Part shown: positions 1-24,137 of the stretch, piece by piece
How the letters are laid out: each line of letters starts with the position of its first letter
Numbering within the stretch: position 1 is the stretch's first letter
DNA from: an uncultured Methanosarcinales archaeon
GTDB lineage: Archaea > Nanobdellota > Nanobdellia > Woesearchaeales > ARS49
Assembly (NCBI GenBank): GCA_964637115.1
Contig: CAZWVL010000004.1
Span: 75,258 to 139,257 of the forward strand
Reading direction: 5' to 3'
Length of the DNA: 64,000 bases
Position numbers and translations under genes: made by a program
The notes under the pieces: model-generated
What the model was told of the DNA's origin: nothing
The model's database searches: none
What the model saw: only the letters and a program-made list of their open reading frames with translations

Positions 1-667
1 TTGCGTCAGCGCTTTCTTTCTTGAACGAATCATCAAGTGTTGTCGGCGCTATATTCAGGAATACGAATTTTGTGTGCTGGTATTCTTCGCTTTTAAGGGA
101 AGGAACTTTGTCTAAAGTAATATTTTCATAGCTGATTAACTGCGGAATGTTTTTTGTTAATTGTTTAAGGAATGAAATACTGCCTGATTCTTCTGTATAA
201 ACAAAGTAGTATTTGATGTTTGGATTTGTCAAATAAAGAAAGTTTGTAACACGATATGGCAGCTTTAATTCAAGTGCCCATACTGTTATGTCTTGATCTT
301 CAAGGAGTTCTGGCGCAAACATTGCTTTATCTCCAAATGGTTTTGGCGCGTTTTCTATTCTAAATCGGCAATTACACCCGGTTAAACATTCAAAGACGAT
401 GCCTTGCGGCGGAACAGGTAATCTCTGTGCTGTTCCTCTGCTCACTATCGCTCCTGTAAATATGTTTTCAATATCTGTTGCGAGAGTTAATTGTAGTTTT
501 TCCTGGCTGTATGCCCGTTGTTTGTACGCTACACTAAAGAAGAATGCTAAAATTAAAGCGCCTGCTATCAAAATGAAGATCCAGTGAAATTGTAACTCAA
601 ATCCCTTTTTGCTAAAAGGGTGCCGCAGTCCCCCGAAGGGGACTGCAGCGGTGCGGTCTATTGCCAT
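1..667 (-). CDS. Pilin-like protein with class III signal peptide-type N-terminus (3' end outside window)
   Basis: Absent from the ORF track because it runs off the window. My minus-strand translation from ATG 665-667 reads MAIDRTAAVPFGGLRHPFSKKG|FELQFHWIFILIAGALILAFFFSVAYKQ... and stays open to position 1. The start overlaps the stop (658-660) of the upstream gene. Confidence 0.55.
   Translation of the reverse strand, partial: MAIDRTAAVPFGGLRHPFSKKGFELQFHWIFILIAGALILAFFFSVAYKQRAYSQEKLQLTLATDIENIFTGAIVSRGTAQRLPVPPQGIVFECLTGCNCRFRIENAPKPFGDKAMFAPELLEDQDITVWALELKLPYRVTNFLYLTNPNIKYYFVYTEESGSISFLKQLTKNIPQLISYENITLDKVPSLKSEEYQHTKFVFLNIAPTTLDDSFKKESADA
625..646 (-). other. 9-bp hairpin with C(UUCG)G tetraloop on the mRNA strand
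   Basis: Plus strand GCAGTCCCC-CGAA-GGGGACTGC. On the minus strand the loop reads TTCG. It lies between the stop of the 180-aa gene and the pilin-type motif of the next gene. Confidence 0.65.
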
Positions 668-1200
668 TGTGATACTTTTGCCTTTTTGCCCGTTCCCTCT
701 AGGCGTACGGTAACTCCATTAACGTTTGGAATGCATACTGAGCCGTTGGCTACTTGCAAATCTGGGAAGTAAAAGTTTTCGAGTGCTCTTGGAACAACAA
801 ACACGTTTCCGCTTTTTACGGCGCAGGCGTCTTGTGCCCACGGAACTTTGATTTCTTGGTTTGGCAGCACGAGTTCTGGTGTTGTTGTTGAACAAGTCAT
901 TGGGTCGAGAAAGCATACGCCAAAGTATTTGCTGGGCAGTTTCAAAGTGACTTTTCTTACCGTGCCAAAATCTCTTTTGACGCTTTCAACTGCTGTTTCC
1001 AAGTCTGTTTTGAAATCTATTATTACGACTTGTTCTTGCCGCTCAATAAAAAACTTGACTGCCTTGTAGCCGTATGAAATTATTAGCACAAACACCAGTC
1101 CTGCGAGTATGTAGATGAAGACTTGTCCCATTATTTGGCCTCTTCTCTTATACCCGCCACGCGCTTTTACAATTAAATCAGCGTTTGTGCCTTTTCCCAT
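658..1200 (-). CDS. Small membrane-anchored pilin-like protein (class III signal peptide-type N-terminus)
   Basis: 180-aa ORF. N-terminus MGKGTNADLIVKARGGYKRRG|QIMGQVFIYILAGLVFVLIISYGY has basic residues plus Gly followed by a hydrophobic helix. It overlaps the upstream giant gene by 23 nt. Confidence 0.55.
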   Translation of the reverse strand: MGKGTNADLIVKARGGYKRRGQIMGQVFIYILAGLVFVLIISYGYKAVKFFIERQEQVVIIDFKTDLETAVESVKRDFGTVRKVTLKLPSKYFGVCFLDPMTCSTTTPELVLPNQEIKVPWAQDACAVKSGNVFVVPRALENFYFPDLQVANGSVCIPNVNGVTVRLEGTGKKAKVSQWQ

Positions 1201-4200
1201 AGTGTTCCAGTTCTTTTTCCAGTTCTTCTTTGTGTGTCTTGTAGTATTCTGCGGTTATCTTGAGTTTGTGGAACAGTTCTTCCATTTCTTCTTTTGATAG
1301 AAGTCCTGCTTTCAGAAGCTTGTATTTTACCAGCAGATCTTTCTGCTCGTCCTCGCCTAGTTCTTCGAGCATTGTGCGCAATTTCATTAATGGCGCTTCT
1401 GTTGTTGCTTTTTCTTTGTGTGCCATTTTGCGAAGTTGTTCGAGTGCTTCGTGGAATTTCTTTGGTGGAAGTGGTTTTTTCTTGATTTCTTTTTCCAGGG
1501 GAATCCAGTTTTTGTCTGGTAATTCTTCTTCTTTGGCGAACGTGCGCAGTTTTTCTATTTCGTCTTCAATGATTTTCTTTACTGGCTTTTCTTCTGCTTT
1601 TGCTGTTGGAACAACTGGTTTTCTTTTTTCTTTTTGTTGTAAAAGCACTATATAGCCCCCATATCCAATGCCTGTTATTGCCAGCAGTATGAATAACACT
1701 TTGAGGAATCCTAAAAATCCTGATGGCGGGTGGCTTGCGGGGTCTAGTGGGTCTGTTCCTTTTTCTACTTCAACACCGTCTTTCCATCCATCTCCATCCG
1801 TGTCTTTTTTAACCGGATTTGTTCCTAATTTGAATTCTTGTAAATTGGTTAGCTTGTCTTTGTCAGGGTCCGCGTCTTCAGCTGCTTCTGGGCAGTCGAT
1901 GCAGCCGAAATTGTCCATCCGCCACCTGTCGTTTATTTCGTCGCCGAGTGTAAAGGTTTGTGATGGCCCGCAGCCTCTTTCATCTATTTGCTCATCTGCC
2001 GGCGTGTTCAAACATTTGTCAACATCATCCGTTATTCCGTCAAGGTCTTCGTCTCCTGCTGGTTCTGAACTGCAAATTTTCAAGTCTAGCTTGCACCATA
2101 GTGGCGTTTCGCAGTCTATGTTTTCTTCGCAGTTCTTGCCTTCTTTGCATCTGTCGCATGGTCCTCCGCAGTCTATGTCTGTTTCGCCTGGGTCATTGAC
2201 TTTGTTTGCACAGGGCGGAGCATCAGTGCAAACACTTTTCAAAAGATCGCAGTATCCTGAATCACAGTCATCGTGTCTTATGCATCCTTTGTCGTTTTCG
2301 CATTTGTTGCATACTTGTCCACCGCAATCCACGTCTGATTCGAGACCGTTCATTACGCCGTCATCACATGCTGCAACTTTGCAAATGTTGTCTTGGCAGT
2401 AGTTTGTCGCGCAATCTTCGTTCGAAATGCACGCTGCTCCTTCAGGACAGCCGTCGCACTCTCCCCCACAGTCTACCCCTACTTCTCCAATACTCTTTTC
2501 GCCGTCTTGGCAAGGCTCTGGTTCTCTTGATATGTCCACTTTGACTCCATCACTTTCCATTGGCTCGCTGATCAAGCCAACTTGGCTTACTGCCTTGACT
2601 GAGAAGCTATAGCGTTTGTTGTTTTGCAGGGGTAATGGTGAACCGTTTTGTGTTCGCGAGATGTAGTGATACTCTCCATTCGTAACATTGCTTACTAAGT
2701 CTTTTATTACTATTTGTTTTTCCGGTAGTCCTTGTAATGTTACAAGGTAGTGTGATATATTGACATCTTCATCTTTTCCTTTGAACGCTACCCTTATCTT
2801 GCTCTTTGACCAAGTGATTTCTGGGTCGTCTTCAAACACTCCATCGTCCTTAACGTATTCCATTGTTGGCGGAGTTGTGTCTATCAGCACTGGTATTGTT
2901 ATGACGTCAGATTGTTCTCCTGACACGTGCATACACTTGACATAGTAGGTATAATCTCCTGGGTTGCTGACTGTTATAAACTGCCATTGTGTGTATCCTG
3001 AGGTGCACGCGCCCATACATCTTGTCGTATCATCTGGTCTTTCCCCAAAGTAGCAGAATACTCTTTTGTTTGCAACAACTCCAATGGTAAAGTTCAGAGT
3101 TCCAAATCCGATTGGCGTGCTGCTGGAAACATTTAATGGCAGGGATAAGTCAACCGTGAATGGCACGGATATTGGCTCCGAGACCAACTGATTTTTCCCT
3201 TTGCAGGTGATGTGGTAAGAATATGATTTTTTTTCTGTGACGTTTACCGGCGCTCCAAGGACTTGTTTTGGCAGTACGTCATATCCTGGAAACTTATTTT
3301 CCATTTGTGGGAAGTTGCTTGATATCAGTGAGTATTTGCAAAATCCTGGCTTGTCAAGCTGTACTTTGAGTGTTGTTGCGTAAATTTCTTTGGCCGGGAT
3401 GTATTGTTCTGCTATTACTGCGGGTTCTGCGTATGCTTTTACAATGTTTATCGGTTCTGTGTCTTGTGTGAGGTTGAATGTTCTTTGCACAATTCCGAAT
3501 TCTGCAAACTTGCAGTAGACGTGGATTGGATACTCGCGTTGTGCATTGAATGGTATCGCGACTTCTGTTGCCGTGTGGATTGTTCCTGTTCCTTCAAATG
3601 CTATGAAGATTTCAAAGTCTGATGGGTTTGGCGCTGTTGGAGTGTCGTATACGTATGCGCAGGTGCTTGGCAGTGGTGTTTCTATAGTCACGTTGAATAT
3701 TGAGAATGGTGTGACGCCAAATGCTGGTGCAAGCAGTCTGATACTTGGTTTTTTAGTCGCGATATAGAAGCTGCTTTGTTTGTAGATATCTAATCCATTG
3801 AAACCTTGCGCGTCTACTGCAATTGTAACTTTTCCTCCAACCACATTGTCTATTTTTGCAGTAAATGTTTGGTTGTTGGTTGTTTTGAATAATGTTGTAA
3901 TGTCTCTTGAGGTTTGTTTTGGAACATAAGGATCGTCAAATGCATCCGACAGCAATTGCACGGAATCGAGCGTGACTTGTTTGGTGAAATTTAATTCCAC
4001 GTCTACACTTGTTTTGTTGAAGTAGCTTCCATCTGGTGGAGTAATTGTTAAGCCGGCCAGTTCAGGGTCTACAACAAGTATGTAACTGATGCCTGGGGGA
4101 TCAACATAGATGTTTTTTGCGTTATGGCCATTGACGCTGAAATTGTACACTCCCAGCAAGTCTGATATTGGTACGAAGTTGTGCATTGCTGCCATTCCTG

Positions 4201-6277
4201 ATGTTTCTTGTTGCAGCGCAATGCCTTCTCCTGGTCGCGAAATATCTACATATGTTATTTGCGTTGGCTCGTCAAAGAGCATTGTGAATGTTGGCCGTTT
4301 TGCTGACGTGTAGATTGTCTTGCCGATTACTCTGCCTCCGGTGATATTGATTCCTAGCAGTCTTGGGCCGTTGCAGTTGTCGCAGCTGTAAATGTCAATG
4401 TGCTTGATTATTTCGAGATTGTTTGCCGCGTCTCTGCCGTAAAACCACAATGTGTTGTTTCCTGCAGAGAACTTGGCGACTGTTTTGTTGCCGTCTTTTA
4501 GTACCGTGTTCTTCAAGCTCAATCTTGTTGAGTTTGTCACAATGCTGTACGATTGCGCATTTAGGCAGGAATTGGTCGAATTTTGTACGCAAAGATATGC
4601 TTTGTATCCTGGCATGCCAGTATAGTCTTGCAGCGGGCTTGTTTTGTTTATCTTGTCAAACAATCTAATGTTGATGTAGTCTACTCTGTTTGCCTGGCCT
4701 GTTGGAATTAATGTTGACAGTGGAGGGAAGTAATCCATTTCGCAAGTTTTGTTTCCTGGCTTGCAGTCTTGGAATCCTGCTCCTGTGCTTCCGTCTGCGT
4801 TTTTGACACAGCCTACTGCCAGTCTGTATTCGCAAACTCCTATGCTGCAGATATCTGTGCTTTTTTGCGCTATGCTGTTATCTGGGTTTAGTCTGATTCC
4901 GTCAACTGGTGAGTTACATTGCAATGAAGTATAATCTGAACAGGATGCCTCATCACAGGTCTTGCTTACTTTTCTGTCCTTGTCAAAAAAGCACGGGTAG
5001 AGTGAGTTGCTTAGCGCGTTGCTTTTTTCTTCACGGCAGGCATCCCATATTAAGCTTGCTACGTCTGCATTTTCTATGCCTGTCGTGCCGTTTACGCTGC
5101 AGAGTTTGCAGTTGTTGTATCTTCTGTCGATGCACACTCCCACTCCTAAATCTTCGTATACATTGTTCCATTGGCATTCTCCTGCTCCGCAGTTGTCTTT
5201 CGCGCAGGCAGCTTTGCTTTTGTAGTCATAGCAAGTCATTTTAGGATCGCAGTTGTAGCACTTGTCTTTTACTGTGATGCTTTTATCATAGAAACAGTAA
5301 CGCGGGATATTTCCGAATAAATCGCAGGTTTGCGGAGTGGCATAAAGGCCGAATGGGTCAAATCCGTTGCTGCAGATTTCGCGGGTTGCACAGCGTGGTC
5401 CTTTTTCGTCTGAAATGCAAAACTCGTTCTTTCTGAAATCGCATTGCACTTTCGGACTTGGTTCTATCAGACGATTTTGGTCGTTGCAAAGCCAGGCCTT
5501 GTTTAGGCTTGTTGCGAATGTTACGTTAACATTTATTCCAAATGAAGAGGTGAATGCGAGTGCCTCTGTTCCTCCATAGCCGAATTTGGTCAGATAACTT
5601 CTGAATTGGTCATAGTAGAAGTAATTGACGCAGAAAGTGTTTTCTTGTTGGTGCCAGCATTCAATGTCTCCTGCATTGCCTGTTGCAGAGGCTGGATCGC
5701 TGTCTCCTGCAATGGTGTAGTGGGCTACAACAGAATACGTGTAATCCATATTAAATTCGAGGTCCACATCTTCATCTGTGAAAACTGTTGCTGAGGGCGT
5801 TATCGCAATGCTTTTGAAATTCTCACATCCTGTTCCCGCACAACGCGATATGTTCAGATAGTCTGCCGTGCATGGCAGGATGAACGTTAGTCTCAACGCT
5901 TTTTTTCCCTTGATTGATATTATGTTCAAATTTTCCGGTGCTGGTTTGTATGCGGGACTGCCGCATCCGGTGATGATTGGCGCGCAGTCTCCTGGACAGG
6001 CTGTTGCTGTTTCTCCTGGTTGGCAGACGCCGTCTCCGCAGAGTACCGCTCCGGGTGGAGCGAGTGTTGCGTTGCAGTGTTTGCTACACGTGATTGCAAT
6101 GCTCGGAGGCGGGCCGATAAATGTGAAACCCCGTTCTGCGCATTCTGCTGGTGTTGAGAAGCTGCCGTTCTTGACAACTGGGTCGCAGCAGCAGCCGACT
6201 TCTTGTGCGCTTGAGAAGAGCGGTATGGCTAGCAGAATTGCTGCAATAATTGTTGTTATGATTATCGCTCTTCGCAT
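1178..6277 (-). CDS. Giant (1699 aa) Cys-rich type I membrane surface protein, putative adhesin
   Basis: Sec-type signal MRRAIIITTIIAAILLAIPLFSSAQE and very many Cys. Three tandem DCGG-x-C modules. Asp-rich Ca-binding-type repeats (DTDGDGWKDGVEVEKGTDPLDP, DEDLDGITDDVDKC). One TM (FLGFLKVLFILLAITGIGYGGYIVLL) is followed by a 153-aa K/E-rich tail. Confidence 0.85.
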   Translation of the reverse strand: MRRAIIITTIIAAILLAIPLFSSAQEVGCCCDPVVKNGSFSTPAECAERGFTFIGPPPSIAITCSKHCNATLAPPGAVLCGDGVCQPGETATACPGDCAPIITGCGSPAYKPAPENLNIISIKGKKALRLTFILPCTADYLNISRCAGTGCENFKSIAITPSATVFTDEDVDLEFNMDYTYSVVAHYTIAGDSDPASATGNAGDIECWHQQENTFCVNYFYYDQFRSYLTKFGYGGTEALAFTSSFGINVNVTFATSLNKAWLCNDQNRLIEPSPKVQCDFRKNEFCISDEKGPRCATREICSNGFDPFGLYATPQTCDLFGNIPRYCFYDKSITVKDKCYNCDPKMTCYDYKSKAACAKDNCGAGECQWNNVYEDLGVGVCIDRRYNNCKLCSVNGTTGIENADVASLIWDACREEKSNALSNSLYPCFFDKDRKVSKTCDEASCSDYTSLQCNSPVDGIRLNPDNSIAQKSTDICSIGVCEYRLAVGCVKNADGSTGAGFQDCKPGNKTCEMDYFPPLSTLIPTGQANRVDYINIRLFDKINKTSPLQDYTGMPGYKAYLCVQNSTNSCLNAQSYSIVTNSTRLSLKNTVLKDGNKTVAKFSAGNNTLWFYGRDAANNLEIIKHIDIYSCDNCNGPRLLGINITGGRVIGKTIYTSAKRPTFTMLFDEPTQITYVDISRPGEGIALQQETSGMAAMHNFVPISDLLGVYNFSVNGHNAKNIYVDPPGISYILVVDPELAGLTITPPDGSYFNKTSVDVELNFTKQVTLDSVQLLSDAFDDPYVPKQTSRDITTLFKTTNNQTFTAKIDNVVGGKVTIAVDAQGFNGLDIYKQSSFYIATKKPSIRLLAPAFGVTPFSIFNVTIETPLPSTCAYVYDTPTAPNPSDFEIFIAFEGTGTIHTATEVAIPFNAQREYPIHVYCKFAEFGIVQRTFNLTQDTEPINIVKAYAEPAVIAEQYIPAKEIYATTLKVQLDKPGFCKYSLISSNFPQMENKFPGYDVLPKQVLGAPVNVTEKKSYSYHITCKGKNQLVSEPISVPFTVDLSLPLNVSSSTPIGFGTLNFTIGVVANKRVFCYFGERPDDTTRCMGACTSGYTQWQFITVSNPGDYTYYVKCMHVSGEQSDVITIPVLIDTTPPTMEYVKDDGVFEDDPEITWSKSKIRVAFKGKDEDVNISHYLVTLQGLPEKQIVIKDLVSNVTNGEYHYISRTQNGSPLPLQNNKRYSFSVKAVSQVGLISEPMESDGVKVDISREPEPCQDGEKSIGEVGVDCGGECDGCPEGAACISNEDCATNYCQDNICKVAACDDGVMNGLESDVDCGGQVCNKCENDKGCIRHDDCDSGYCDLLKSVCTDAPPCANKVNDPGETDIDCGGPCDRCKEGKNCEENIDCETPLWCKLDLKICSSEPAGDEDLDGITDDVDKCLNTPADEQIDERGCGPSQTFTLGDEINDRWRMDNFGCIDCPEAAEDADPDKDKLTNLQEFKLGTNPVKKDTDGDGWKDGVEVEKGTDPLDPASHPPSGFLGFLKVLFILLAITGIGYGGYIVLLQQKEKRKPVVPTAKAEEKPVKKIIEDEIEKLRTFAKEEELPDKNWIPLEKEIKKKPLPPKKFHEALEQLRKMAHKEKATTEAPLMKLRTMLEELGEDEQKDLLVKYKLLKAGLLSKEEMEELFHKLKITAEYYKTHKEELEKELEHYGKRHKR

Positions 6278-7734
6278 ATTGTTACCTGTAATGGGATTTC
6301 TTGCGAGTCATACCATTCATCCGGGTATGTGCTTCTGTCTTTTGCGTAGACTGTTATGCTGTAGGCAAAATTGGGTGCATCTTTGGAAATTTCATTTCCT
6401 CCGCTTGGCGGGAGGTGCACTGCATACGTGACCTTGTCTTCGTCCGGGTCTGATGCGTTCAATTGTATGAGATATGGATTCTGCACGTCTGCTTCTTGGC
6501 ACGGGTCATTGAATGACAGCACGTTATCCTGCACAGTAACTACCGTGCTTCTGCTTTCAGAAACGTGGAACGTTACATCTTTCAGTGGTGTTGTGTCTAT
6601 CTGCCATAATGCCGGTATTCTGTTTTTTCTGGGTATCCAGAATTCAAATGGCTTGTTTGCTACAACGCTTTGCGCGTCCTTTACTGAAACAAAGCTGTCT
6701 TCCCCGTATGGCAGGATGCCGACTGAGAATGCTCCGATGTTTTGCGGAGTGTAGGAAATGTCCGTGACATCAGAATCAATCATTTGCTTGACTGTATAGT
6801 AAATGGTTGCCAGTCTGACTGGTGCTTTGATTGCGAAGTCTGCAAGTAAGGTTTTATCTCCTCCTGGTGTTGTTACTTCAACTGGCCAGTCGAGTTCTAT
6901 TGTGATATATTGTTCTCCGGCGAATTGTTCTTGTCTTTGTGCAAAAATTAGCGTGGCTGTTGACTTTCCTCCAGTTATTGAGTATCCTTTTTCTTCAAAT
7001 GTTTTCCAGTCTACGCAGTTTGCTGTTTTTTTGGCAATAAATGTTTCAAGGTTTTCCTGTATCGAATTGCTTACGTATTCTCCTGTTTGTGCACTTACTT
7101 TGTACAACGATGGCATCGTGTTCTTGCCATAGTATCCTTTGAATAATGGAGTTGTTTCTCCTGGAGGATAGGGGAATCCAGGATACGGATATTCTGGCGG
7201 CTCTGAGAAAAATAGCGTGCTGACATTTCCTTCTGGCGGCAGGATTAGATATTGTACTTTTAGCTGTTCTGCCCTGTCAGGATCTGTGTACATTACAAAG
7301 CTTCCTGGTGCAGGTTCTGGTGTTATTCCTCCTTGGTTTTGATAAATTACTCCTCCTTGTCTGCCGATTAGCGAGAGTGCTTCAGTTGTTGCTAATGACA
7401 AACACGTTGTAATGTAGTCTTGTATTGGCTGTATGCCGAATTTTTCTGTGGTTTGCTGTGTTTGCTTTACTTCAATGCGCTGCTTCATTTTTGTGCCGAC
7501 ATATAGCGCGATTGAAAATGCGACGAGCACCAAGATTCCGATGATGATGAAGATTGTTATTTGTCCTCGTTTACGTGAAATCCTGGCCGCGCTGGTCTTA
7601 CGAACTGATTTTTCTCCCCCGTACTTGCAAGGGGGAGAAAAATCACCTCGACGCGGTCGAGGCACCGCGGCAAATATGTACAACAGTGATCTTATCACGG
7701 ACTCACCCTGAGCATTCCTACCACTTCTTCCCAC
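6262..7734 (-). CDS. Pilin-like surface protein with class III signal peptide-type motif (true start uncertain)
   Basis: 490-aa ORF. The motif SRKRG|QITIFIIIGILVLVAFSIALYVG begins at residue 53. The region before it contains two perfect hairpins. It overlaps both neighbours (16 nt and 40 nt). Confidence 0.7.
   Translation of the reverse strand: MGRSGRNAQGESVIRSLLYIFAAVPRPRRGDFSPPCKYGGEKSVRKTSAARISRKRGQITIFIIIGILVLVAFSIALYVGTKMKQRIEVKQTQQTTEKFGIQPIQDYITTCLSLATTEALSLIGRQGGVIYQNQGGITPEPAPGSFVMYTDPDRAEQLKVQYLILPPEGNVSTLFFSEPPEYPYPGFPYPPGETTPLFKGYYGKNTMPSLYKVSAQTGEYVSNSIQENLETFIAKKTANCVDWKTFEEKGYSITGGKSTATLIFAQRQEQFAGEQYITIELDWPVEVTTPGGDKTLLADFAIKAPVRLATIYYTVKQMIDSDVTDISYTPQNIGAFSVGILPYGEDSFVSVKDAQSVVANKPFEFWIPRKNRIPALWQIDTTPLKDVTFHVSESRSTVVTVQDNVLSFNDPCQEADVQNPYLIQLNASDPDEDKVTYAVHLPPSGGNEISKDAPNFAYSITVYAKDRSTYPDEWYDSQEIPLQVTICEER
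7607..7662 (-). other. Two adjacent perfect hairpins (14-bp and 7-bp stems) at an intercistronic junction
   Basis: GATTTTTCTCCCCC (7607-7620) pairs with GGGGGAGAAAAATC (7631-7644). CCTCGAC (7646-7652) pairs with GTCGAGG (7656-7662). Confidence 0.7.
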
Positions 7735-8819
7735 GCGTCTACAATGCTTTGTCTGATGTCAAACTTGTTGACTGGCGGATTCCTGTGCGCTGCAACGTAG
7801 AATTCTGACGCTGTTGGTTGTATTTCGCAGTTGGCTCTGCTGTCGTATCCTTTGATTATGTGGTCACAAGTGCCGTTTGGAAGGTTAATGTTTGAAAAGT
7901 ACCATCCTGCGTAATCAATTTGTGTTAGTGTAACGTTTTTTTGTCTAAAGCTGTAGACAAAGTCAAAGTCTTCTTTTGCAATGTAGATTTGCTTGAACGC
8001 TGGTGTTTGGTTGAAGAATGTGTAGTTGTATTGTGCTATGTCTGGATTGTACACGTGATCAAACACGTAATTTTTCAGTTTGTTGTATGGAGTCATGAAG
8101 AATTGTTCTGTTATTGGATTGACTGGTGGCAGGATTGCCGTGTGAGCGTAAATGATGCTTTTTGTGTCGTAGTTGTACCATACTCCGAACTCGCATAGGT
8201 CGTAGTCCTTGTCATTGTTGATCGCGTTGTCGCAGCTGTCTTCGCTCAAGTTCAGTGCGAGCAATGGGCTCTTTGAACCATCAATTTCTGTGTTTATGGC
8301 AGTTCCGAATGCTACATTGTTTCCGTGTCTTAAAACGCACACAGAGTTGACGCAGTTTCTTAATGCTCGGCCGCCTGTCGGCATGCAGAACTTTCCGAGG
8401 AAACTTATTACGGCGCCATAGTCTGTTCGGTATGAATACCGGTTGAATACTTTATCGTAATCGTCACAGTAGATGGAGAAGTTTGTCGGGCTCTGGTTGA
8501 GTGCAAGACTGATTAATTGTGTTGAAACAAGTTTTGTTCGTGAGCTCCACTGGCCCATGTCGCAGTAATTGTCTTCGATAAATTGCGTGTTGTTGATGCA
8601 TTTTGGCTTGTCTTCGTTGCTTTGTTCGCTCCAGTATCTGTCTGGGAAATTGTCCCATGCAGGATTAAATGCGTTGCTTACAAGGCATTGGCTTGTTTCT
8701 GTGCAGAATCCTATTGTTTTTCTGTCCCAATCTTGTCTTATGCTGACTTCAACCCAGTCTGCTGCTTGCACGAATGGTACTAGAATTAAGAACAGTAAAA
8801 CCAGATTTTTTACTGACAT
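7695..8819 (-). CDS. Secreted Cys-containing protein of unknown function
   Basis: 374-aa ORF with Sec-type signal MSVKNLVLLFLILVPFVQA|ADW. Many Cys and N-x-S/T sites. It overlaps the upstream gene by 10 nt. Confidence 0.7.
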   Translation of the reverse strand: MSVKNLVLLFLILVPFVQAADWVEVSIRQDWDRKTIGFCTETSQCLVSNAFNPAWDNFPDRYWSEQSNEDKPKCINNTQFIEDNYCDMGQWSSRTKLVSTQLISLALNQSPTNFSIYCDDYDKVFNRYSYRTDYGAVISFLGKFCMPTGGRALRNCVNSVCVLRHGNNVAFGTAINTEIDGSKSPLLALNLSEDSCDNAINNDKDYDLCEFGVWYNYDTKSIIYAHTAILPPVNPITEQFFMTPYNKLKNYVFDHVYNPDIAQYNYTFFNQTPAFKQIYIAKEDFDFVYSFRQKNVTLTQIDYAGWYFSNINLPNGTCDHIIKGYDSRANCEIQPTASEFYVAAHRNPPVNKFDIRQSIVDAWEEVVGMLRVSP

Positions 8820-10513
8820 AGGAATCCTCTCTGGCCAATAATGTAGTATTCGCCGATGTTTCTACAGTTTTTGCCGTCCCAGCATTGGTCTTCTGGGCAG
8901 CAGCCTTTTTGTTGTTCGTTTTCAAGAGGCGTCCATTTTGTTTGTTTTATGACAGTTGTTTCTATGTTGTTTGTAAAGTACCATTGACCTGATGGAATGC
9001 AGATTGAGTTGGGCTTGGTTCCAGTTAATAACGTGTTAAGGAGTGGAATTCCGCACGCCGGTTGTACTGTGATAGTTATGTCTGTGTCTTGCAGTATGGC
9101 CGTCATTGGTGTGTTAATGTCAGGATTGCATTTGTAATACTCGCCCCTGTGCGACAAAATCGTTTTTTGAGAATCTAGGAAAGTTCCGCTTGGAAGGAAT
9201 TCGTTGTTGTAGCATACTCCTGCTGTTCCAGTGCCCGCATACGGGTCTTCGTACGTGCGCAACGGATCGTCTGGTTCGCCGCAGCATTGTGTGCCTGTCC
9301 ATTTGAGTGCTGCATTTTCACAAGTGGCTCTGTCTTCAATTGACACGCTGAATATTCCGTTTGAATTGCAATAGTTTTTCTTTCCGTCAATGAGTATGTT
9401 CGCGCCCGGCTCTAATGCGGTCGGCGAATAGGGTGTTCCTCCGCCGCATTCAATGATGTTTTCTCCCTGGCAAATGTAATCGTGCTCCCCTATTTTGATA
9501 ATGCCGTTTAGCTGCTGGATTTTGTCTGCTGGGATAATGGTTTGCGGAATGTGTGTACACGTGTAGAATATGCTGCCATTGGATACAACTTTCATTACTG
9601 GGCAGCTTCCACTAAGCGGTGTGATTAATCCAATATCTCCAAGTGCTGCCCATTTCCAGAAGCTTTCTGCATCTTGACCGCAGACTGCTTGCTTGTCGGC
9701 ATACCATTGGCAACCGCTGGCCGGCAGGTAGCCTGCATCTCCGCAGCATTTTCCGTCAAACCAGTCCTTTCCTTCATCAAAGCAATCTTCTTCGTCGAAG
9801 TAGTCGCAGTGGGGATTACCATCAGCATCAGTATTAGAATCTGAGTTCAGACACGTATAAGTGATGTCGTTAAACCCTGATGTTTCTGTTCTGCTGGTTG
9901 AGCTCGAACCTGTTTGATCATCAAACCATATCGGTGCTTTTGTGGTTGAGCTGTACGCCTTTACTGTGCCATTAAAATTTGAAACATCGATTATTTCTCT
10001 TACTCGTTTCAGGTTTATGGCGTTTGTTCCTCTGAGAGAGAAAAGGTCTCGTACTATGGTTGCTGCTGCTCCTCCAACTTGCACAACTTTTGATATGGTT
10101 ATTTGTAAAGTCCCTGTATTGCGTGATCCTTCATATGAAAATACTACTGTGCTCACTGTCTTTCCATAAGTGAAGTTCACTGTTTGCGTTGGTATGTTTG
10201 CCAGATCTTTGCATATTTTTGAATCGTCTTGATTTTGTGCACATAACTTGACGGCCCCGCACTGATATGTCCTTCTAAAAATATTAAAACATATGGGCAG
10301 ATTTGCTACTGTTTGCAGTTGTTGAACAAATGGAGAATCCGGCAGGGTGAGCGTTGCGGTTGAAGGATAACTTGCTCCAATGATTGCAGTTGTTCCAAGG
10401 TTTGCAGTGAAATCCAGTTGCTTGCTTTCGTTGATTGAGATTGTGAAGATGGCATCTTCTGCAAGAACTGCTATGCTTAGTAATAGGAAAATGAATAGGT
10501 AAACAGACCGCAT
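8810..10513 (-). CDS. Secreted Cys-rich protein of unknown function (first gene of the surface operon)
   Basis: 567-aa ORF with signal MRSVYLFIFLLLSIAVLA|EDA. Recurrent CCG-type motifs (KCCGDAGY, TQCCGEPDD, KGCCPEDQCWDGKNC). An A/T-rich TATA-like stretch lies at ~10524-10535 just upstream. Confidence 0.75.
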   Translation of the reverse strand: MRSVYLFIFLLLSIAVLAEDAIFTISINESKQLDFTANLGTTAIIGASYPSTATLTLPDSPFVQQLQTVANLPICFNIFRRTYQCGAVKLCAQNQDDSKICKDLANIPTQTVNFTYGKTVSTVVFSYEGSRNTGTLQITISKVVQVGGAAATIVRDLFSLRGTNAINLKRVREIIDVSNFNGTVKAYSSTTKAPIWFDDQTGSSSTSRTETSGFNDITYTCLNSDSNTDADGNPHCDYFDEEDCFDEGKDWFDGKCCGDAGYLPASGCQWYADKQAVCGQDAESFWKWAALGDIGLITPLSGSCPVMKVVSNGSIFYTCTHIPQTIIPADKIQQLNGIIKIGEHDYICQGENIIECGGGTPYSPTALEPGANILIDGKKNYCNSNGIFSVSIEDRATCENAALKWTGTQCCGEPDDPLRTYEDPYAGTGTAGVCYNNEFLPSGTFLDSQKTILSHRGEYYKCNPDINTPMTAILQDTDITITVQPACGIPLLNTLLTGTKPNSICIPSGQWYFTNNIETTVIKQTKWTPLENEQQKGCCPEDQCWDGKNCRNIGEYYIIGQRGFLCQ

Positions 10514-10593
10514 TATCCCCCTCTTTTTATATAGTTAGAACTGGTTTTGCTTTATATATTTTCCTGACAGAATTCTGGGATAATGGCAGAATA

Positions 10594-19289: not shown

Positions 19290-20447
19290 ATGAACAAGCG
19301 CGGTGATAGGGCACAGGGTGGCGGACCAGCTGCTGCGCTTATTGGAATTATCACCCTGTTGTTCATTTTCTACATATTGTTCCTTCCTCCTGAAGAACGC
19401 AGAGAGCTTTTGGAGGGCGATAACGCTACTTTTGACGAAGAAGGCGGGCTGCTTTTGGATGAAGCTCCTGGCACGCTGACTTTTACGGAAAAGGGCGTGT
19501 TTGACCATAGTATTTCCAATGTTTACCTTGTTGAAACAAAAAATGCCGTTGTCTTGGGTTCTGAAAATCCGTTTATTGTGAAAAAGGGCTGGTTTGGAGA
19601 GCAGACTAAGTCTATGGTTTTCGGCGTTTCTGATATGGAAAATACTGAAAACTTGATGTTGAGTTTCCAGGCGCCTGAAAGAAAGGGCAATCTTGTGATT
19701 GCATTGAATGGCCAGAAGATTTTTGAGAGTGAGGTTAAAGTGCAGAATCCTCCTCCTGTTTTGCTGCCAAAGCCTTTGTTGAAGCCAACAAACCAGCTGG
19801 ACTTTTCCGTTGCTGGAGGTTTCTTTTCGAAGAGGAAGTATTCGTTGTCTGATGTGAAAGTTGTTGGCGATATTACTGATGTTAAGAAGCAGGTTGCCCA
19901 AAATACTTTCACTATTTCTGATACTGAAAAGGAAAATCTTGATACTTCATTCCTTGACTTTTATCCGATTTGTGACCAGCGCACTGTTGGTGTTTTGACG
20001 CTCGAGTTGAATGGCAAAATTATCTTTTCCGCAGCTCCCGCATGTGACAGTTTAAACAGGCAGGACTTGTATGCTGAAGACTTGCGTTCTGGAAAGAACA
20101 CCGTTATTTTCAGGATTGACAGGGGAAGTTATCGTGTTGAGCAGATTCGCGTGAGAACTATTTTAGAACCTGTCAAGGCATACATTGATTTCTTCAATAT
20201 CAAAAGCAGTGTATACAATGACATCTTGGACAGGGAGCGTCAAGTTATTCTAAGGATGGAATTTGTTGATGATGAAAAACAGAAAAGGGCTGAATTAAAT
20301 TTGAACGGCAGAAAGGATGCTATTGACCAGCGTGATAATGTTTATGAGCGCGATGTTAGTTCTTGGATTAAAGAGGGTAGCAACTATATCGAGATTAAAC
20401 CGCTGACTGAGCTTGACGTTGTCAGGCTGGAAGTCCGCGCGGATTAA
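19290..20447 (+). CDS. N-terminally anchored envelope protein with three LNG-type beta-rich repeats (unknown family)
   Basis: 385 aa. Anchor MNKRGDRAQGGGPAAALIGIITLLFIFYILFLPP. Recurring segments LVIALNGQKIF, LTLELNGKIIF and AELNLNGRKDAI. First gene of a five-gene operon. Confidence 0.7.
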   Translation: MNKRGDRAQGGGPAAALIGIITLLFIFYILFLPPEERRELLEGDNATFDEEGGLLLDEAPGTLTFTEKGVFDHSISNVYLVETKNAVVLGSENPFIVKKGWFGEQTKSMVFGVSDMENTENLMLSFQAPERKGNLVIALNGQKIFESEVKVQNPPPVLLPKPLLKPTNQLDFSVAGGFFSKRKYSLSDVKVVGDITDVKKQVAQNTFTISDTEKENLDTSFLDFYPICDQRTVGVLTLELNGKIIFSAAPACDSLNRQDLYAEDLRSGKNTVIFRIDRGSYRVEQIRVRTILEPVKAYIDFFNIKSSVYNDILDRERQVILRMEFVDDEKQKRAELNLNGRKDAIDQRDNVYERDVSSWIKEGSNYIEIKPLTELDVVRLEVRAD

Positions 20448-20449
20448 AG

Positions 20450-22210
20450 ATGCCAAATTGGAAAGCATGGGCCGCTAATCTGGTTGCTCCAGGTTCTGGA
20501 TTTCTTGTAAAGATGGCTGACAAGTTTAAGAAAAAACCTATGATGACTGCTGCAGCGGCTGGTGCTGCCGGCGGCGTTGCTGTGGGTGCAGCTGCTGTTT
20601 ATGCGCGTCCAGAACCGGCTCCTGCGCCTCAACAAGCTCCGGTTTATGCCGCGCCTTCAGGACCGGGCATTACAAGTAAAATTGTTGGTGGCACGTGGCT
20701 CGCATTAAAAGGATTGTTTGGCTCTGTGCTTCCCGAAACTGCTGGCAGGAACATTCTTCGTGCTGTTTTGATTTTAGGTGCTGCTTTGGCGTTTTATGTT
20801 TTGTTGAAAAGATTGGGAATTAGAACTCCGTTTAATGTTTCTTTCATTGTGATTTTCGGCATTGCTGCAGCTGTTTACGAGCTCGCGCCAGAGCCGATTG
20901 GGAAATTATTCAAGTGGGCTTCATTGATTTTCGGAGGATTTGTCGGTTTTTGGGCTTTAGCTATCGGTCCTTTCAGCCCTTCAATTGCAAAATGGGCCAC
21001 ACTCTCGTGGCTCATATTGTATACTGTGCTGTTTTTCTCTATTCTTAGATTCAAGAAAGGAATGATTGTGCTCACGTTCAACGCACTCATTTTTGGCTTG
21101 TTGTTCACGAATTTTTACAATGGCGTGTACGAGGCTGGAACTCCCTTGCATACTGCGTTGCAGGGCCAGCAAAGCGCGTGGAGGGAGTTGTATAGGGATA
21201 TCTCAGGAGCAGGTAAGGAAGCGTATGCTGGATTGGGACGGCAGCTTTATTTTTTCAAACCAGACAGTTATGATCTTGGTGTTGAAGAAAATGCTGCGCG
21301 TCCTTTGGGTGTTTATTTGAAGGATATTGGCGTTACTTCAAAGACAATTTTAATTGATGATAATGTAAATGTGTTTGCCACTTTGAAATCTTTGTCTTTC
21401 AAGACTGATGCTGAACTGAAAATTGATGTTGCTTGTTACGAGGAAGGATTTGAGGATATGCCTGATAAGCGCGGCATTATTACGCCGCTCGCTTCTGTCC
21501 CCTTGAGGGAGGATGAAGAGCAGCCTGTTGATTGCAACATTGATGCTGCCAATCTTGGTATTGGAAGTCATAACATTGCTATTGAGGCAACATTTGGTTT
21601 CCCAACAAGCGCTTATCTGAAAAGCTACTTTATGCTGCAAGATCAGATACGCGCTTACAAAAAACAGCATCCTGAGGAAGAAGCAAATCCATTGGATGCC
21701 TTCGAAATTACTGATAAAAACCCGATTGCGAAGTATACTGGCGGGCCTTTGTACATTGGTATGGGTGCTGGCCAACAGCCGATTCCCCTGCCTTCAGAGA
21801 ATTTTGGCCCGACCTTGACTATAACTCTTGACCGCAATTCTGGCTGGGATGGAGATCTTATAAGTGTGAAAAAGATTACGATTGCTGTTCCTCCTGGTTT
21901 GAAAGTTTCTAAGATTAGCGGCAGGAGTGTGGAGAAGTATTGCCAGATTGTTTCAGAAGAGGATACTTGTGTTCTTGACAAGCCTGAAATTCTTGACAGG
22001 TTATTTCCCCCCGCTGAGAAACCTGTCCACTTGGAGAAGAAGATTCGCGTTGAGACTTTGATTACTGATAAAGCAAAGCTTATGGCAAATGCTCCGCTCG
22101 CGATCAGAAGCTTTAAAGTAACAGCTGATTATGTGTTCCGTATTAAGAAGACATCAGAAAGTATAACTGTGCAGGCGCCAAAAGTGCCTAAGACTGGAGG
22201 CATTGCGTGA
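20450..22210 (+). CDS. Polytopic membrane protein with C-terminal ectodomain related to the downstream lipobox proteins
   Basis: 586 aa. Ala/Gly/Pro-rich N-terminus, about 5 hydrophobic segments (residues ~95-250), then a ~300-aa soluble part. That part has motifs paralleling the paralogs (VACYEEG, GMGAGQQPIPL, TADYVFR). It starts 2 nt after the upstream stop. Confidence 0.75.
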   Translation: MPNWKAWAANLVAPGSGFLVKMADKFKKKPMMTAAAAGAAGGVAVGAAAVYARPEPAPAPQQAPVYAAPSGPGITSKIVGGTWLALKGLFGSVLPETAGRNILRAVLILGAALAFYVLLKRLGIRTPFNVSFIVIFGIAAAVYELAPEPIGKLFKWASLIFGGFVGFWALAIGPFSPSIAKWATLSWLILYTVLFFSILRFKKGMIVLTFNALIFGLLFTNFYNGVYEAGTPLHTALQGQQSAWRELYRDISGAGKEAYAGLGRQLYFFKPDSYDLGVEENAARPLGVYLKDIGVTSKTILIDDNVNVFATLKSLSFKTDAELKIDVACYEEGFEDMPDKRGIITPLASVPLREDEEQPVDCNIDAANLGIGSHNIAIEATFGFPTSAYLKSYFMLQDQIRAYKKQHPEEEANPLDAFEITDKNPIAKYTGGPLYIGMGAGQQPIPLPSENFGPTLTITLDRNSGWDGDLISVKKITIAVPPGLKVSKISGRSVEKYCQIVSEEDTCVLDKPEILDRLFPPAEKPVHLEKKIRVETLITDKAKLMANAPLAIRSFKVTADYVFRIKKTSESITVQAPKVPKTGGIA

Positions 22211-23127
22211 AAAAATTAATTTTACTGCTATTATTACTTGCTGCCTGTCAGTTCCAAGTTCCCACAAAAACAAAGTTTCCTCAGGAAATCCCCGTTTTTA
22301 CAGGAACTACCGCTCTTGAAGCTGCTTTTAATCCTGCTTCGATGAGCAACATTATCATGTGTCAGCAGGCTGATGTTTATGTTGATGTTAAGAATACTGG
22401 CGCATCCAATATTGTTGATGGCACGTTAACTTTCATTACTGAAGATCAGTATTTGATGCCTTTGTCTGAGCGTGTTAGAAAGTTTTCTTTACTTGGAAAA
22501 TCTCAGTTTAATCCTAAAGGTGGTTTTGACCAGGTGAATTTTAAGGTTAAGAATATTGGCATCTTGCCGCAGTTTGAAAGCTATCAGTCCGATCTTATCT
22601 TCCGTGCTTGTTACAAGTACGATACTATTGCTGCTGCGCAGGTTTGTATTGATCCTGATGTCGCTAATTTGAATCCTCGTAAGACTTGTCGTGCAACACC
22701 TGTTGTCTTGCCTGGGGGCCAGGGCGCTCCTGTTGCAGTTACGCGTGTTGAGCCTTTGATGGTTCCTGAGGGCGACCAAATTCATCCTGTGTTCGTGGTT
22801 TATGTTCAACAGCTTGGAAGAGGCGATGTGGTTAAGCCAGAGGGCTCGGAGCTTGCTTGCACTGGTGGTGGCGGGCCTCTTTTGGCAAGTTATGCTTCTG
22901 TACGCGCCTCAATTCAGAACAGGGAATTGAAGTGTGAGCCCAACCCTGTGAGAATTGAGCCTGGCCAGGAATCCAGGTTTATTTGCGAGCGCCAGGACAT
23001 GTTGTTTGGCCCTACTTCAGGCACGTTTAGCACCATTTTGTCAGTTCAGCTTGATTACGGTTACGTAACGAGTGCGTTATTGCCGATGACCATTACAAGG
23101 CTTCCGGGACAGGCGCCATGCAAATAG
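22207..23127 (+). CDS. Lipobox envelope protein, paralog A (unknown family)
   Basis: GTG start in a GTGA overlap with the upstream stop. N-terminus MKKLILLLLLLAAC. Motifs ACYKYDTIAAAQVCIDPD, GGQGAPVAVTRVE, QLGRGDVV and LDYGY are shared with paralogs B and C. Confidence 0.75.
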   Translation: MKKLILLLLLLAACQFQVPTKTKFPQEIPVFTGTTALEAAFNPASMSNIIMCQQADVYVDVKNTGASNIVDGTLTFITEDQYLMPLSERVRKFSLLGKSQFNPKGGFDQVNFKVKNIGILPQFESYQSDLIFRACYKYDTIAAAQVCIDPDVANLNPRKTCRATPVVLPGGQGAPVAVTRVEPLMVPEGDQIHPVFVVYVQQLGRGDVVKPEGSELACTGGGGPLLASYASVRASIQNRELKCEPNPVRIEPGQESRFICERQDMLFGPTSGTFSTILSVQLDYGYVTSALLPMTITRLPGQAPCK

Positions 23128-23160
23128 TTACCAAAAAGTATTTATAAGGTAGTGATTGGA

Positions 23161-24102
23161 ATGACATATATGAAAAAGAGTCTGATGATTATATTTTTGC
23201 TAGTGTTCTTGATTGCCTGTGCGAGGATTGGAAAGAAGGGTGAGCAGCCGCAGCCTCAGGAGTTTCGTTCTGGTACGCAGGGAATTTACATGCAGTTTGT
23301 TCCAAACCTGCCTCCACCTAAAGTGTTTGACCGGGAGCCGTTGAACGTTATGATTCAGATTGAGAACAGGGGTACTGCTATGGTTGGCTCTGTTGGCCTT
23401 GACAAGGTTTACCTTTCTGGTTTTGATAACAATATCATCACTGGTATTCCGATGGATGGTGTTGACATTCCTCAAATGGAGGGTCGTGGTCCTTATATGC
23501 CGCAGGGCGGAATTGATACTGTCAGCTTCAGGGGAATTATCCAACCTTTGGGTGCAAAGAGGATTGACAAGTATCAGCCTACTTTGCTGGCTACTGCCTG
23601 TTATCATTATGAGACAATCGCTAGTGCTCAAGTGTGCATTGATCCTAATCCTTATGCGCCGACAAACATTGTAAAGGTGTGCACGCCTTCCACTGTCGGT
23701 CTTGGCAGCCAGGGCGCGCCGATTGCAGTTACTAGTGTTGAAGTTGTCCCATCGCCTGAGAAAACAAGATTCAAGATTAGCATTTCAAATGTTGGTGGCG
23801 GTGATGTGTTTAGGTCGCGTTACTTAAACGCGTGCAGTCCGTATAGCGGCGGTCTTGGCTTTAATGAAGTTGATTTTGTGAGAGTTGATAACGTCGTTAT
23901 TTCTGGACAAACCATAAAGGATACTTGTAAGCCGTTTAGTGACCGTGAGTTTATTCGTTTGACAAATGGCCAGGCCCAGTTATTCTGCGAGTTTAATGCT
24001 CCTCCTGGTCAGAGTGCGTTCTTGACTCCTTTGGAAATTTGGCTTGATTATGGCTATCGTTCGAGCATTTTCAGGCAGCTCGACATTAGACCTGTTTCGT
24101 AA
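23161..24102 (+). CDS. Lipobox envelope protein, paralog B (unknown family)
   Basis: N-terminus (MTY)MKKSLMIIFLLVFLIAC. Motifs ACYHYETIASAQVCIDPN, GSQGAPIAVTSVE, NVGGGDVF and LDYGY. The track starts at GTG 23152; ATG 23161 or 23170 is more likely. Confidence 0.75.
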   Translation: MTYMKKSLMIIFLLVFLIACARIGKKGEQPQPQEFRSGTQGIYMQFVPNLPPPKVFDREPLNVMIQIENRGTAMVGSVGLDKVYLSGFDNNIITGIPMDGVDIPQMEGRGPYMPQGGIDTVSFRGIIQPLGAKRIDKYQPTLLATACYHYETIASAQVCIDPNPYAPTNIVKVCTPSTVGLGSQGAPIAVTSVEVVPSPEKTRFKISISNVGGGDVFRSRYLNACSPYSGGLGFNEVDFVRVDNVVISGQTIKDTCKPFSDREFIRLTNGQAQLFCEFNAPPGQSAFLTPLEIWLDYGYRSSIFRQLDIRPVS

Positions 24103-24137
24103 CATTTAAATAAGTACATTCTTGATTAAGTTCAAAA

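Follow-up and report, generated by a model that had tools for sequence, protein, structure and literature searches.

The 64,000-nucleotide stretch analysed here (hereafter the window) is taken from contig CAZWVL010000004.1 of an uncultured archaeon of the Woesearchaeales. It is a segment of archaeal chromosome, with genes for the alpha and beta subunits of PheRS, eRF1, a TrmB regulator, RFC, PolD DP1 and DP2, MCM, TBP and SecY as well as a long operon of ribosomal-protein genes; neither tRNA genes nor Rfam matches were detected in it. At its beginning lies an operon for exported proteins, the subject of this study, whose products may belong to a type IV filament (TFF)-like surface apparatus. 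The genes that fall within the window are listed below, with lengths in amino acids (aa).

g1: 8810-10513, minus strand, 567 aa, Sec-type signal, 28 Cys; candidate adhesin or recognition subunit
g2: 7695-8819, minus strand, 374 aa, Sec-type signal, 12 Cys
g3: 6262-7734, minus strand, 490 aa when read from GTG; large pilin-like protein
g4: 1178-6277, minus strand, 1699 aa, type I membrane glycoprotein; putative conserved scaffold or stalk
g5: 658-1200, minus strand, 180 aa; pilin-like protein
g6: 1-667, minus strand, ATG at 667, 222 codons inside the window, running past position 1; large pilin-like protein

A preliminary description of this DNA had reported six overlapping minus-strand genes that run on past position 1. 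These open reading frames are real, and the successive overlaps from g1/g2 to g5/g6 measure 10, 40, 16, 23 and 10 nt, the value of 40 nt for g2/g3 being valid only with the GTG start of g3. The continuation was recovered on an identical public contig (L001), where g6 reaches its full length of 371 aa; two more genes, g7 (191 aa) and g8 (164 aa), come after it in the same orientation, and convergent genes lie beyond them. The operon is made up of eight genes, g1-g8, the first six of which are inside the window. Thus, while the overlapping arrangement of the proposed six-gene, single-transcript unit stands, its gene number does not, and the idea of one transcript is weakened by hairpins in two of the junctions (see below). 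Similarly, the three pilin-type N-termini that had been quoted are present exactly as written, but the pilin-type products number five (g3, g5, g6, g7 and g8) rather than three.

Class III signals and pilin-like folds

The five families g3 and g5-g8 begin with a short basic leader, often M-x-K-K, carrying K or R at position -2 and G, A or S at position -1, followed by a hydrophobic helix of about 20 residues. The putative cleavage sites (arrow) read ...SRKRG↓QITIFIIIGILVLVAF in g3, with the codon of Gln +1 at 7563-7561, ...YKRRG↓QIMGQVFIYILAGLVFVLII in g5 and ...FSKKG↓FELQFHWIFILIAGALILAFFF in g6; beyond the window, on L001, they read ...NPRG↓QIKMFETVGVLIVFFF in g7 and MYNKG↓QTEIFGLVIIVIL in g8. 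Before positions were counted, each N-terminal family was aligned on the hydrophobic segment. Gln was found at +1 in 36 of 42 g3 sequences, 56 of 58 g5 sequences, 68 of 78 g7 sequences and all 76 g8 sequences, and in none of the g6 sequences, which have F, I, L or V at this position. Other N-terminal positions were conserved within single families, namely Gln +5 in g5, an invariant Glu +6 in g7, an invariant Glu +3 in g8 and, in g6, an invariant Glu +2, Gln +4 and Trp +7.

These signals were compared with those of the Methanococcus maripaludis Epd pilins, for which the EppA processing sites have been defined experimentally as RA↓QI, KG↓QV, KG↓QL and KG↓QI (PMC4371748). EppA requires Gln at +1, and Glu at +5 is typical of its substrates (PMC4371748). 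The sites of g3, g5, g7 and g8 agree exactly with the Epd sites at -2, -1 and +1. Because the motif recurs at the same positions in dozens of genomes and in all five families, a chance occurrence could be ruled out. The class III reading that had been given to these N-termini is therefore borne out by a conserved [KR][KR]-[G/A/S]↓Q motif with a following helix, which matches the EppA sites.

A check by a FlaFind-type rule had also been suggested. This rule, which reportedly goes back to Szabo et al. 2007, is said to call for a basic leader ending in [KR]-[G/A], with some 20 hydrophobic residues next to it. Its core, [KR][GA][ALIFQMVED][ILMVTAS], was present in 25 of 42 g3, 48 of 58 g5, 46 of 78 g7 and 54 of 76 g8 sequences. 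With Ser allowed at -1, the relaxed pattern was present in 36/42, 56/58, 66/78 and 75/76 sequences, respectively. Both sets of counts are too low because some registrations of the pattern were off by one. Most members of these four families therefore conform to the rule, whereas g6 fails its strict form, the sole reason being the Glu at +2.

The folds of two of the pilin-like proteins were modelled with AlphaFold2. The g5 model, built from an alignment of 86 relatives, reached a predicted local distance difference test score (pLDDT) of 93.2 and a predicted template modelling score (pTM) of 0.80, and consists of a disordered leader (residues 1-19), a helix (20-75) and a beta-rich head. The g6 model (pLDDT 88.4, pTM 0.80) has a 56-residue helix, also spanning residues 20-75, a beta domain and a C-terminal helical bundle. 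Both proteins are thus predicted with high confidence to have the lollipop layout of type IV pilins. One conserved Cys pair is found in the g5 head and six invariant Cys in that of g6. In a profile-profile comparison of g5, g7 and g8, only the N-termini were alike and the heads were unrelated to each other; unlike heads behind like N-termini are usual for pilins, and at the level of sequence we counted this as speaking for a filament-like apparatus.

Relatives of known function were scarce. The g5 family comprises 826 clusters at 50% identity, and the distant paralog that we examined is a stand-alone gene. The 195 homologs of g6 are all unnamed or 'hypothetical', and those with a name all belong to Candidatus Woesearchaeota. 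Profile searches against PDB sequences returned nothing for g2, g5, g7, g8 and the small pilin candidates encoded downstream of the operon; for g3, the top match was the N-terminal helix of the archaeal pilin 6w8u, at a non-significant E = 0.62. Among all eight operon proteins, the Pfam and NCBIfam models matched only g4 (TSP3_bac), and neither DUF361 nor DUF2341 was matched in any of them. It had been stated earlier that the pilin interpretation would fall if the homologs proved to be ordinary N-anchored enzymes. This did not hold, no Pfam, NCBIfam or PDB relatives being found, and the absence of enzyme domains from g1-g8 rules such enzymes out.

Conservation and the wider island

Conservation was surveyed with one genome per species; relatives were found in 178 genomes, and 80 loci were compared by phmmer with the eight operon proteins. 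The order g1-g8 was recovered wherever the contig was long enough and the upstream genes were detectable by phmmer, down to about 26-30% identity, and is kept in some 80 species-level genomes of Woesearchaeota/Nanoarchaeia. The gene order, for which a check in related genomes had been proposed, is thus conserved in the loci compared. One divergent clade has g6-g8 but no g1-g5 immediately upstream of them, indicating that g1-g5 and g6-g8 are separable modules. Taken at the level of sequence, the comparison supports the view that the locus encodes a conserved surface apparatus. We found no paper in the literature on this operon, or on type IV pili in Woesearchaeota specifically.

The titles of the records that carry the operon name Woesearchaeota, Nanoarchaeia and Nanoarchaeota. 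Many others read 'uncultured Methanosarcinales archaeon' (L010, L012-L015, L018 and others), and one reads 'Candidatus Binatia bacterium' (L039). The Methanosarcinales and Binatia titles look like mislabelling or mis-binning.

After g8 there is a second conserved array, whose proteins have class-III-type N-termini like those of g3 and g5-g8. Two or three of its members are tiny proteins of about 90-120 aa, with 4-6 Cys and the N-terminus KK[AG]Q-G-[LI]-[PS]-[IL]-x-T-I-I-I-A-A-L; the others are a protein of about 330-390 aa, several of 150-190 aa and, in some genomes, one of about 1000 aa. The distance from g8 to the array is 50-100 nt in divergent genomes and 7 kb in the window strain. In L094 and L095, the sequence from g4 to the end of the array is contiguous and an RPA-like gene then follows; in the window strain (L002, L089), the second part consists of 11 genes and is again followed by an RPA-like gene. 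Altogether, 16 proteins with class-III-type N-termini are encoded in about 27 kb of the window strain. In the clade of the window strain, three regulatory-type genes (for an AbrB-PhoU protein, an APH-like kinase and an AsnC regulator) lie between g8 and the array. Two features of this wider island are located as follows.

Regulatory-type insert: L001 12707-17162 and L002 3505-9304; AbrB/MazE-PhoU-like protein (300 aa), APH-like kinase-fold protein (about 590 aa), AsnC-type regulator and small unknowns
Class-III-type proteins with peptidoglycan-hydrolase heads: L089 3340-4362 (window strain, Amidase_3); L079 17426-18487; L094 10001-11041

One of the 11 array genes of the window strain encodes an Amidase_3 domain, which scores 33.7 bits (cut-off 27; E 4.8e-8). 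The first zinc ligand of this domain is Lys in the window strain, whereas roughly half of the relatives have kept His there. Two additional array members have VanY/Peptidase_M15 heads in other clades, and some relatives carry Amidase_2 or Peptidase_M15_3 instead. Peptidoglycan-hydrolase domains are unexpected for an archaeon. Their presence as heads of island proteins suggests that the partner cells may be bacteria rather than archaea.

Cysteine-rich proteins, transcript features and neighbouring genes

The remaining operon products, g1, g2 and g4, had been described as Sec-type and very Cys-rich. The signals are indeed of the Sec type, and Cys accounts for 4.9% of g1, 3.2% of g2 and 4.8% of g4, versus 1.2% in 14 housekeeping proteins of the window. 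The least conserved component of the operon is g1 (24-67% identity), with a conserved core that corresponds to its Cys-rich C-terminal part. In 5 of 31 genomes, g1 has an N-terminal LamG/ConA lectin domain (Laminin_G_3, best E 1.6e-26); the window's own g1 had no Pfam match. In other DPANN archaea, a role as adhesion modules has been suggested for LamG/ConA-type domains (PMC7414124). Being variable and, in some genomes, equipped with a lectin domain, g1 appears from its sequence to be a better adhesin candidate than g4. In about 10 genomes g1 and g2 are fused into one protein of 850-1100 aa. Eleven of the 12 Cys of g2 are invariant, and searches of Pfam and the PDB with this protein yielded no relative, only a sub-threshold VanY match (E 0.052).

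From its N-terminus, g4 begins with the Sec signal and an N-terminal third rich in Cys, after which come a BIg-like region (671-833, matching SiiE-type domains at E 5e-5) and an FN3 domain (about 1157-1238, E 5e-15). Next are three modules of about 50 aa, again Cys-rich, and then TSP3-type Ca-binding repeats (TSP3_bac in Pfam, scoring 29 bits where the cut-off is 25). A transmembrane (TM) helix leads into a cytoplasmic tail of about 170 aa that is rich in K and E and contains the conserved motif EELFxKL..T..YY..HK. Outside these recognised domains, g4 is mostly unique Cys-rich sequence. It has 82 Cys, at least 50 of which are invariant or nearly so, and 24 N-glycosylation sequons. The protein is conserved end to end (28-81% identity over about 1500-1800 aligned residues), to a degree comparable to the pilin-like subunits, and its length is 1523-1724 aa in the large majority of genomes, with a few relatives ranging from 1342 to 3090 aa. 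When set against giant Ca-binding adhesins of the SiiE/Bap type, g4 lacks long variable Ig-like arrays and has a C-terminal membrane anchor of its own. No PilY1/PilC beta-propeller and no DUF2341 domain was detected in g1, g2 or g4 (Pfam, E <= 1).

The preliminary description had proposed that g4 is a giant adhesin displayed on a pilus. This proposal was not sustained: g4 has its own TM helix and a conserved tail, and it is conserved rather than variable. Given its anchor, tail, Cys and stable length, g4 looks like a membrane-anchored scaffold and not like a fast-evolving adhesin displayed on a pilus, and the TM helix together with the cytoplasmic tail led us to reject it as a pilus-borne adhesin. 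Elsewhere in the window, at 48015-49094 on the plus strand, a 359-aa membrane protein has a Cys-rich module, CCGNRQCEEGESPSACALDC, that resembles the module CGDGVCQPGETATACPGDC near the N-terminus of g4.

Three further features of the operon, all on the minus strand, concern its expression.

g1 upstream intergenic region: 10514-10593, minus strand; putative promoter and ribosome-binding region, read from the sequence
Two neighbouring RNA hairpins, g2/g3 junction: 7609-7662, minus strand; 6-bp stem and 15-bp GC-rich stem
12-bp GC-rich hairpin, g5/g6 junction: 622-649, minus strand; in the leader-coding part of g6

Upstream of g1, the TATA-like stretch mentioned in the preliminary description corresponds to an A/T box, ctatataaaaag, at about 10525-10536; a second TATA-like A/T box, aaaatatataaag, is at about 10550-10562, and the sequence GAGGGGG stands 4 nt ahead of the g1 ATG. 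The two hairpins at 7609-7662, between the g2 stop and the g3 class III motif, have a folding energy of -41.8 kcal/mol (z = -6.9 versus shuffles), and the hairpin at 622-649 has one of -26.8 kcal/mol (z = -4.8 versus shuffles). Given hairpins of this strength at two of its gene junctions, g2/g3 and g5/g6, the operon may not yield one unprocessed transcript.

The hairpins occupy what would be the leader-coding parts of g3 and g6, and hairpin-free relatives have leaders of 3-6 residues. The start of g3 is uncertain. Initiation at GTG 7734 gives a 57-aa leader that runs through the hairpins, initiation at ATT 7581-7579 gives a typical 6-aa leader, and there is no ATG from the g2 stop to the KRG↓Q site; the gene caller had placed the start within the helix, yielding 422 aa. 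In the same strain, three genes of the downstream array (L089 2-85, 4349-4432 and 5348-5431) have a common leader peptide, KQRK(C)TAFSS(F/L)(E/K)KLRFS(R/K)R(A/G), which is encoded by a small hairpin-forming DNA repeat. This very peptide is also present in the g3 and g5 leaders of related genomes, and no copy was found in the window.

Apart from the operon, the window contains a second cluster of five envelope-type genes at 19290-25082 on the plus strand, none of which had a Pfam match. They encode a 385-aa N-anchored protein (MNKRGDRAQGGG...), a 586-aa protein that combines 5-6 TM helices with about 340 aa of soluble domain at the C-terminus, and three paralogues of 306, 316 and 314 aa with lipobox-like signals.

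A proposed type IV filament-like apparatus and its alternatives

We propose, with a probability that we put at roughly 0.55, that g1-g8 are the upstream module of a Woesearchaeales island for the extracellular subunits of a TFF-like surface apparatus. The island probably builds a pilus-type structure for contact with partner cells, a function that we infer. One prediction of this model is that a prepilin peptidase encoded elsewhere would cut the leaders ahead of Gln, and that the subunits would bundle through their mature hydrophobic N-termini, giving either a short filament or a complex for the tip or for priming. The minor pilins of such a structure would be g3 and g5-g8, and its major subunits the small proteins encoded downstream. 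Binding would be provided by the Cys-rich secreted g1 and g2, with a lectin in some lineages, and g4 would serve as a membrane-anchored stalk or scaffold coupling the structure to the cell. Its purpose would be contact with partner cells, for which the murein-hydrolase heads suggest bacteria.

Several results weigh against this model, in which leader cleavage and filament assembly are predictions. A Foldseek search of the PDB gave no relative and matched no pilin, the best E being 0.69 for g5 and 0.025 for g6 with template modelling scores below 0.25. No curated pilin model of Pfam or NCBIfam (for example Class_IIIsignal or Pilin_N) was matched at E <= 0.1-1 in a scan that covered g3-g8, 86 g5 homologs, 48 of the small downstream pilin candidates and the proteins of the downstream array. 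The Glu that EppA substrates typically have at +5 is out of register, standing at +2 in g6, +3 in g8 and +6 in g7. Moreover, the system cannot be wholly filament-borne, since g4 is held by its own TM helix. According to one preprint, DPANN genomes lack type IV pilus components (10.1101/2020.05.14.094862).

The same holds for the assembly machinery, which was searched for in the window, the operon flanks and the island, and not in whole genomes. In the window there is no secretion ATPase, TadC/PilC platform or class III peptidase: the P-loop proteins are Orc1/Cdc6, PAN and RFC only, and no polytopic protein has a GxGD motif, as the preliminary description had also concluded for the pilus ATPase, PilC-like platform and prepilin peptidase. 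No T2SSE-type ATPase, T2SSF/TadC platform or A24 peptidase was encoded within ±10 kb of the operon in 88 loci, and following the whole island to its end in L089, L094 and L095 brought to light no ATPase, platform or peptidase. The earlier suggestion to look beyond position 1 was thus fruitful in that the operon does continue, but it linked no pilB, pilC or prepilin peptidase gene to the island. Beyond the far end of the window there are ribosomal protein genes only. A motif scan of 5027 open reading frames from the 88 loci gave two P-loop matches, both of which were discarded: one has an LSGGQ-type motif and is therefore an ABC ATPase, and the other, at only 291 aa, does not resemble a secretion ATPase. 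As for other genomes, archaeon GW2011_AR4 is presumably a Woesearchaeon, an unconfirmed assignment for a genome that NCBI lists as unclassified. FlaK is reported in it by a study of Undinarchaeota, together with VirB11, TadC, EppA and FlaK in several DPANN lineages, and a 2026 preprint places the TFF 'System 1' and '4A' in some DPANN archaea.

A more far-reaching version of the model, which we offer as a tentative possibility, is that g1-g8 and the array together specify a 19-25-gene Woesearchaeales host-contact organelle for attaching to bacterial partners and breaching their walls. It would consist of an EppA-type pilin-like scaffold or short filament bearing lectin and peptidoglycan-hydrolase heads, tied to the cell by the 1700-aa TM protein with its cytoplasmic signalling tail, and it would be assembled by machinery that is not linked to the island, has diverged strongly or is novel in type.

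The main rival explanation dispenses with the filament. The products of the island could form a membrane-anchored surface complex, either bindosome-like or an envelope- or S-layer-associated scaffold, in which the N-termini, cleaved or not, act as anchors only; we judge this less probable, though a substantial share of the likelihood falls to it. It would account for the failure to find linked assembly machinery in any genome examined, and it fits with each family being present once per locus and conserved like the parts of a stoichiometric complex, with g4 having its own anchor and cytoplasmic tail, and with enzyme-type heads (Amidase_3, VanY) behind the same N-terminus. There is also a precedent in the sugar-binding proteins of Sulfolobus, which carry class III signals yet are not pilins (PMC4371748), and the N-terminus of g7 is faintly like that of the bindosome protein BasB (E 0.006, far below cut-off). 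However, the known bindosome itself needs a PilB/PilC-type pair, and a mere anchor would have no need of a strict EppA-type motif or of a conserved Glu/Gln inside the hydrophobic segment. In addition, three Cys-containing island proteins of about 80-100 aa (mature) with near-identical N-termini look like filament subunits.

A pseudopilus for transport, resembling the type II secretion system (T2SS) or the Com system and used for hydrolase export or for the uptake of DNA or cell-wall fragments by a reduced symbiont, is in our estimation unlikely. Five pilin-like proteins of graded size would parallel GspG-K and ComGC-GG, hydrolase-headed proteins are encoded in the same island, and pilus-mediated DNA uptake has been proposed for other DPANN lineages (PMC7414124). 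Conversely, the island has no ATPase, platform protein, ComEC-like channel or nuclease, and its large Cys-rich and lectin-bearing proteins point to binding. Least favoured, and very improbable to our mind, is the version of the preliminary description, a pilus with the 1699-aa protein as tip or shaft adhesin. The Ig-like, FN3 and Ca-binding TSP3 modules of g4 are typical of adhesins, but its C-terminal TM helix and conserved cytoplasmic tail, the lack of a class III signal, and a length and sequence that are conserved across the order rather than diversified all speak against this role.

For the TFF-like apparatus that we prefer, the closest parallel is the Epd pilus of M. maripaludis (TFF 'System 1'/clade 1). 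Both have the [KR][G/A]↓Q signal with a hydrophobic helix, several minor-pilin-like proteins in one operon, large secreted putative adhesins in the locus and a small major pilin, a putative one in the island, and this type of system has been reported in DPANN archaea. In contrast to the woesearchaeal island, in or near which none of these genes was found, the Epd locus includes the ATPase EpdL, two TadC-like proteins and the peptidase EppA; there is also no sequence similarity past the N-terminus, and the woesearchaeal proteins do not have Glu at +5. In published locus models of archaeal type IV pili, the Methanococcus clade 1 systems have five or more minor pilins plus large adhesins, and large proteins of adhesin type, or Cys-rich and S-layer-like, occur in other systems (PMC4858521). 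Among these, the Thermoproteales loci 4B and 4E (Makarova, Koonin and Albers 2016; PMC4858521) share with the present operon a group of small minor-pilin-like proteins, nearly all components being Cys-rich, a large S-layer-like protein with a C-terminal TM helix and conserved Cys, and a large secreted adhesin or minor pilin. Those loci are, however, defined by ATPase and TadC genes and belong to another phylum, and the likeness is one of locus layout; no homology was found, no search aimed at it having been made.

By analogy only, the operon also recalls the bacterial fimU-pilVWXY1E operon and the GspHIJK tip of the T2SS, in which four or five graded pilin-like proteins are combined with a large Ca-binding protein. 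Bacterial minor pilins with PilY1, and GspHIJK, are thought to prime and cap the filament. Unlike these, g4 is membrane-anchored, the signals are of the archaeal type, neither PilY1 nor DUF2341 is represented, and solved minor pilins gave no structural match. Finally, the downstream array, g3 and g6 resemble modular pilins such as Streptococcus sanguinis PilB and PilC (see PMC8179133), and the substrates of the Sulfolobus bindosome, where modules (here lectin-like, amidase-like and carboxypeptidase-like) are grafted behind a class III signal and helix. They differ from modular pilins in that the heads of g3 and g5-g8 have no recognisable function and the incorporation of the woesearchaeal proteins into a filament is a prediction.

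Woesearchaeota are among the most widespread uncultured archaea and are assumed to be symbionts. The island described here encodes exported proteins only, is found order-wide and consists of families absent from curated resources; it is a concrete candidate for the contact apparatus. In the whole genome of M. maripaludis, 14 EppA substrates are predicted among 16 FlaFind positives (PMC4371748); the 16 proteins with EppA-type signals in about 27 kb of the window strain thus come close to the predicted total for that genome. If the genomes truly lack assembly genes, the processing and assembly of archaeal pilin-like proteins would become an open question. The operon families could be used as markers and as targets for antibodies, cryo-electron tomography and enrichment work. 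If the organelle interpretation is true, they would provide an initial molecular entry point into the lifestyle of the uncultured Woesearchaeota and the identity of the organisms that they live on.

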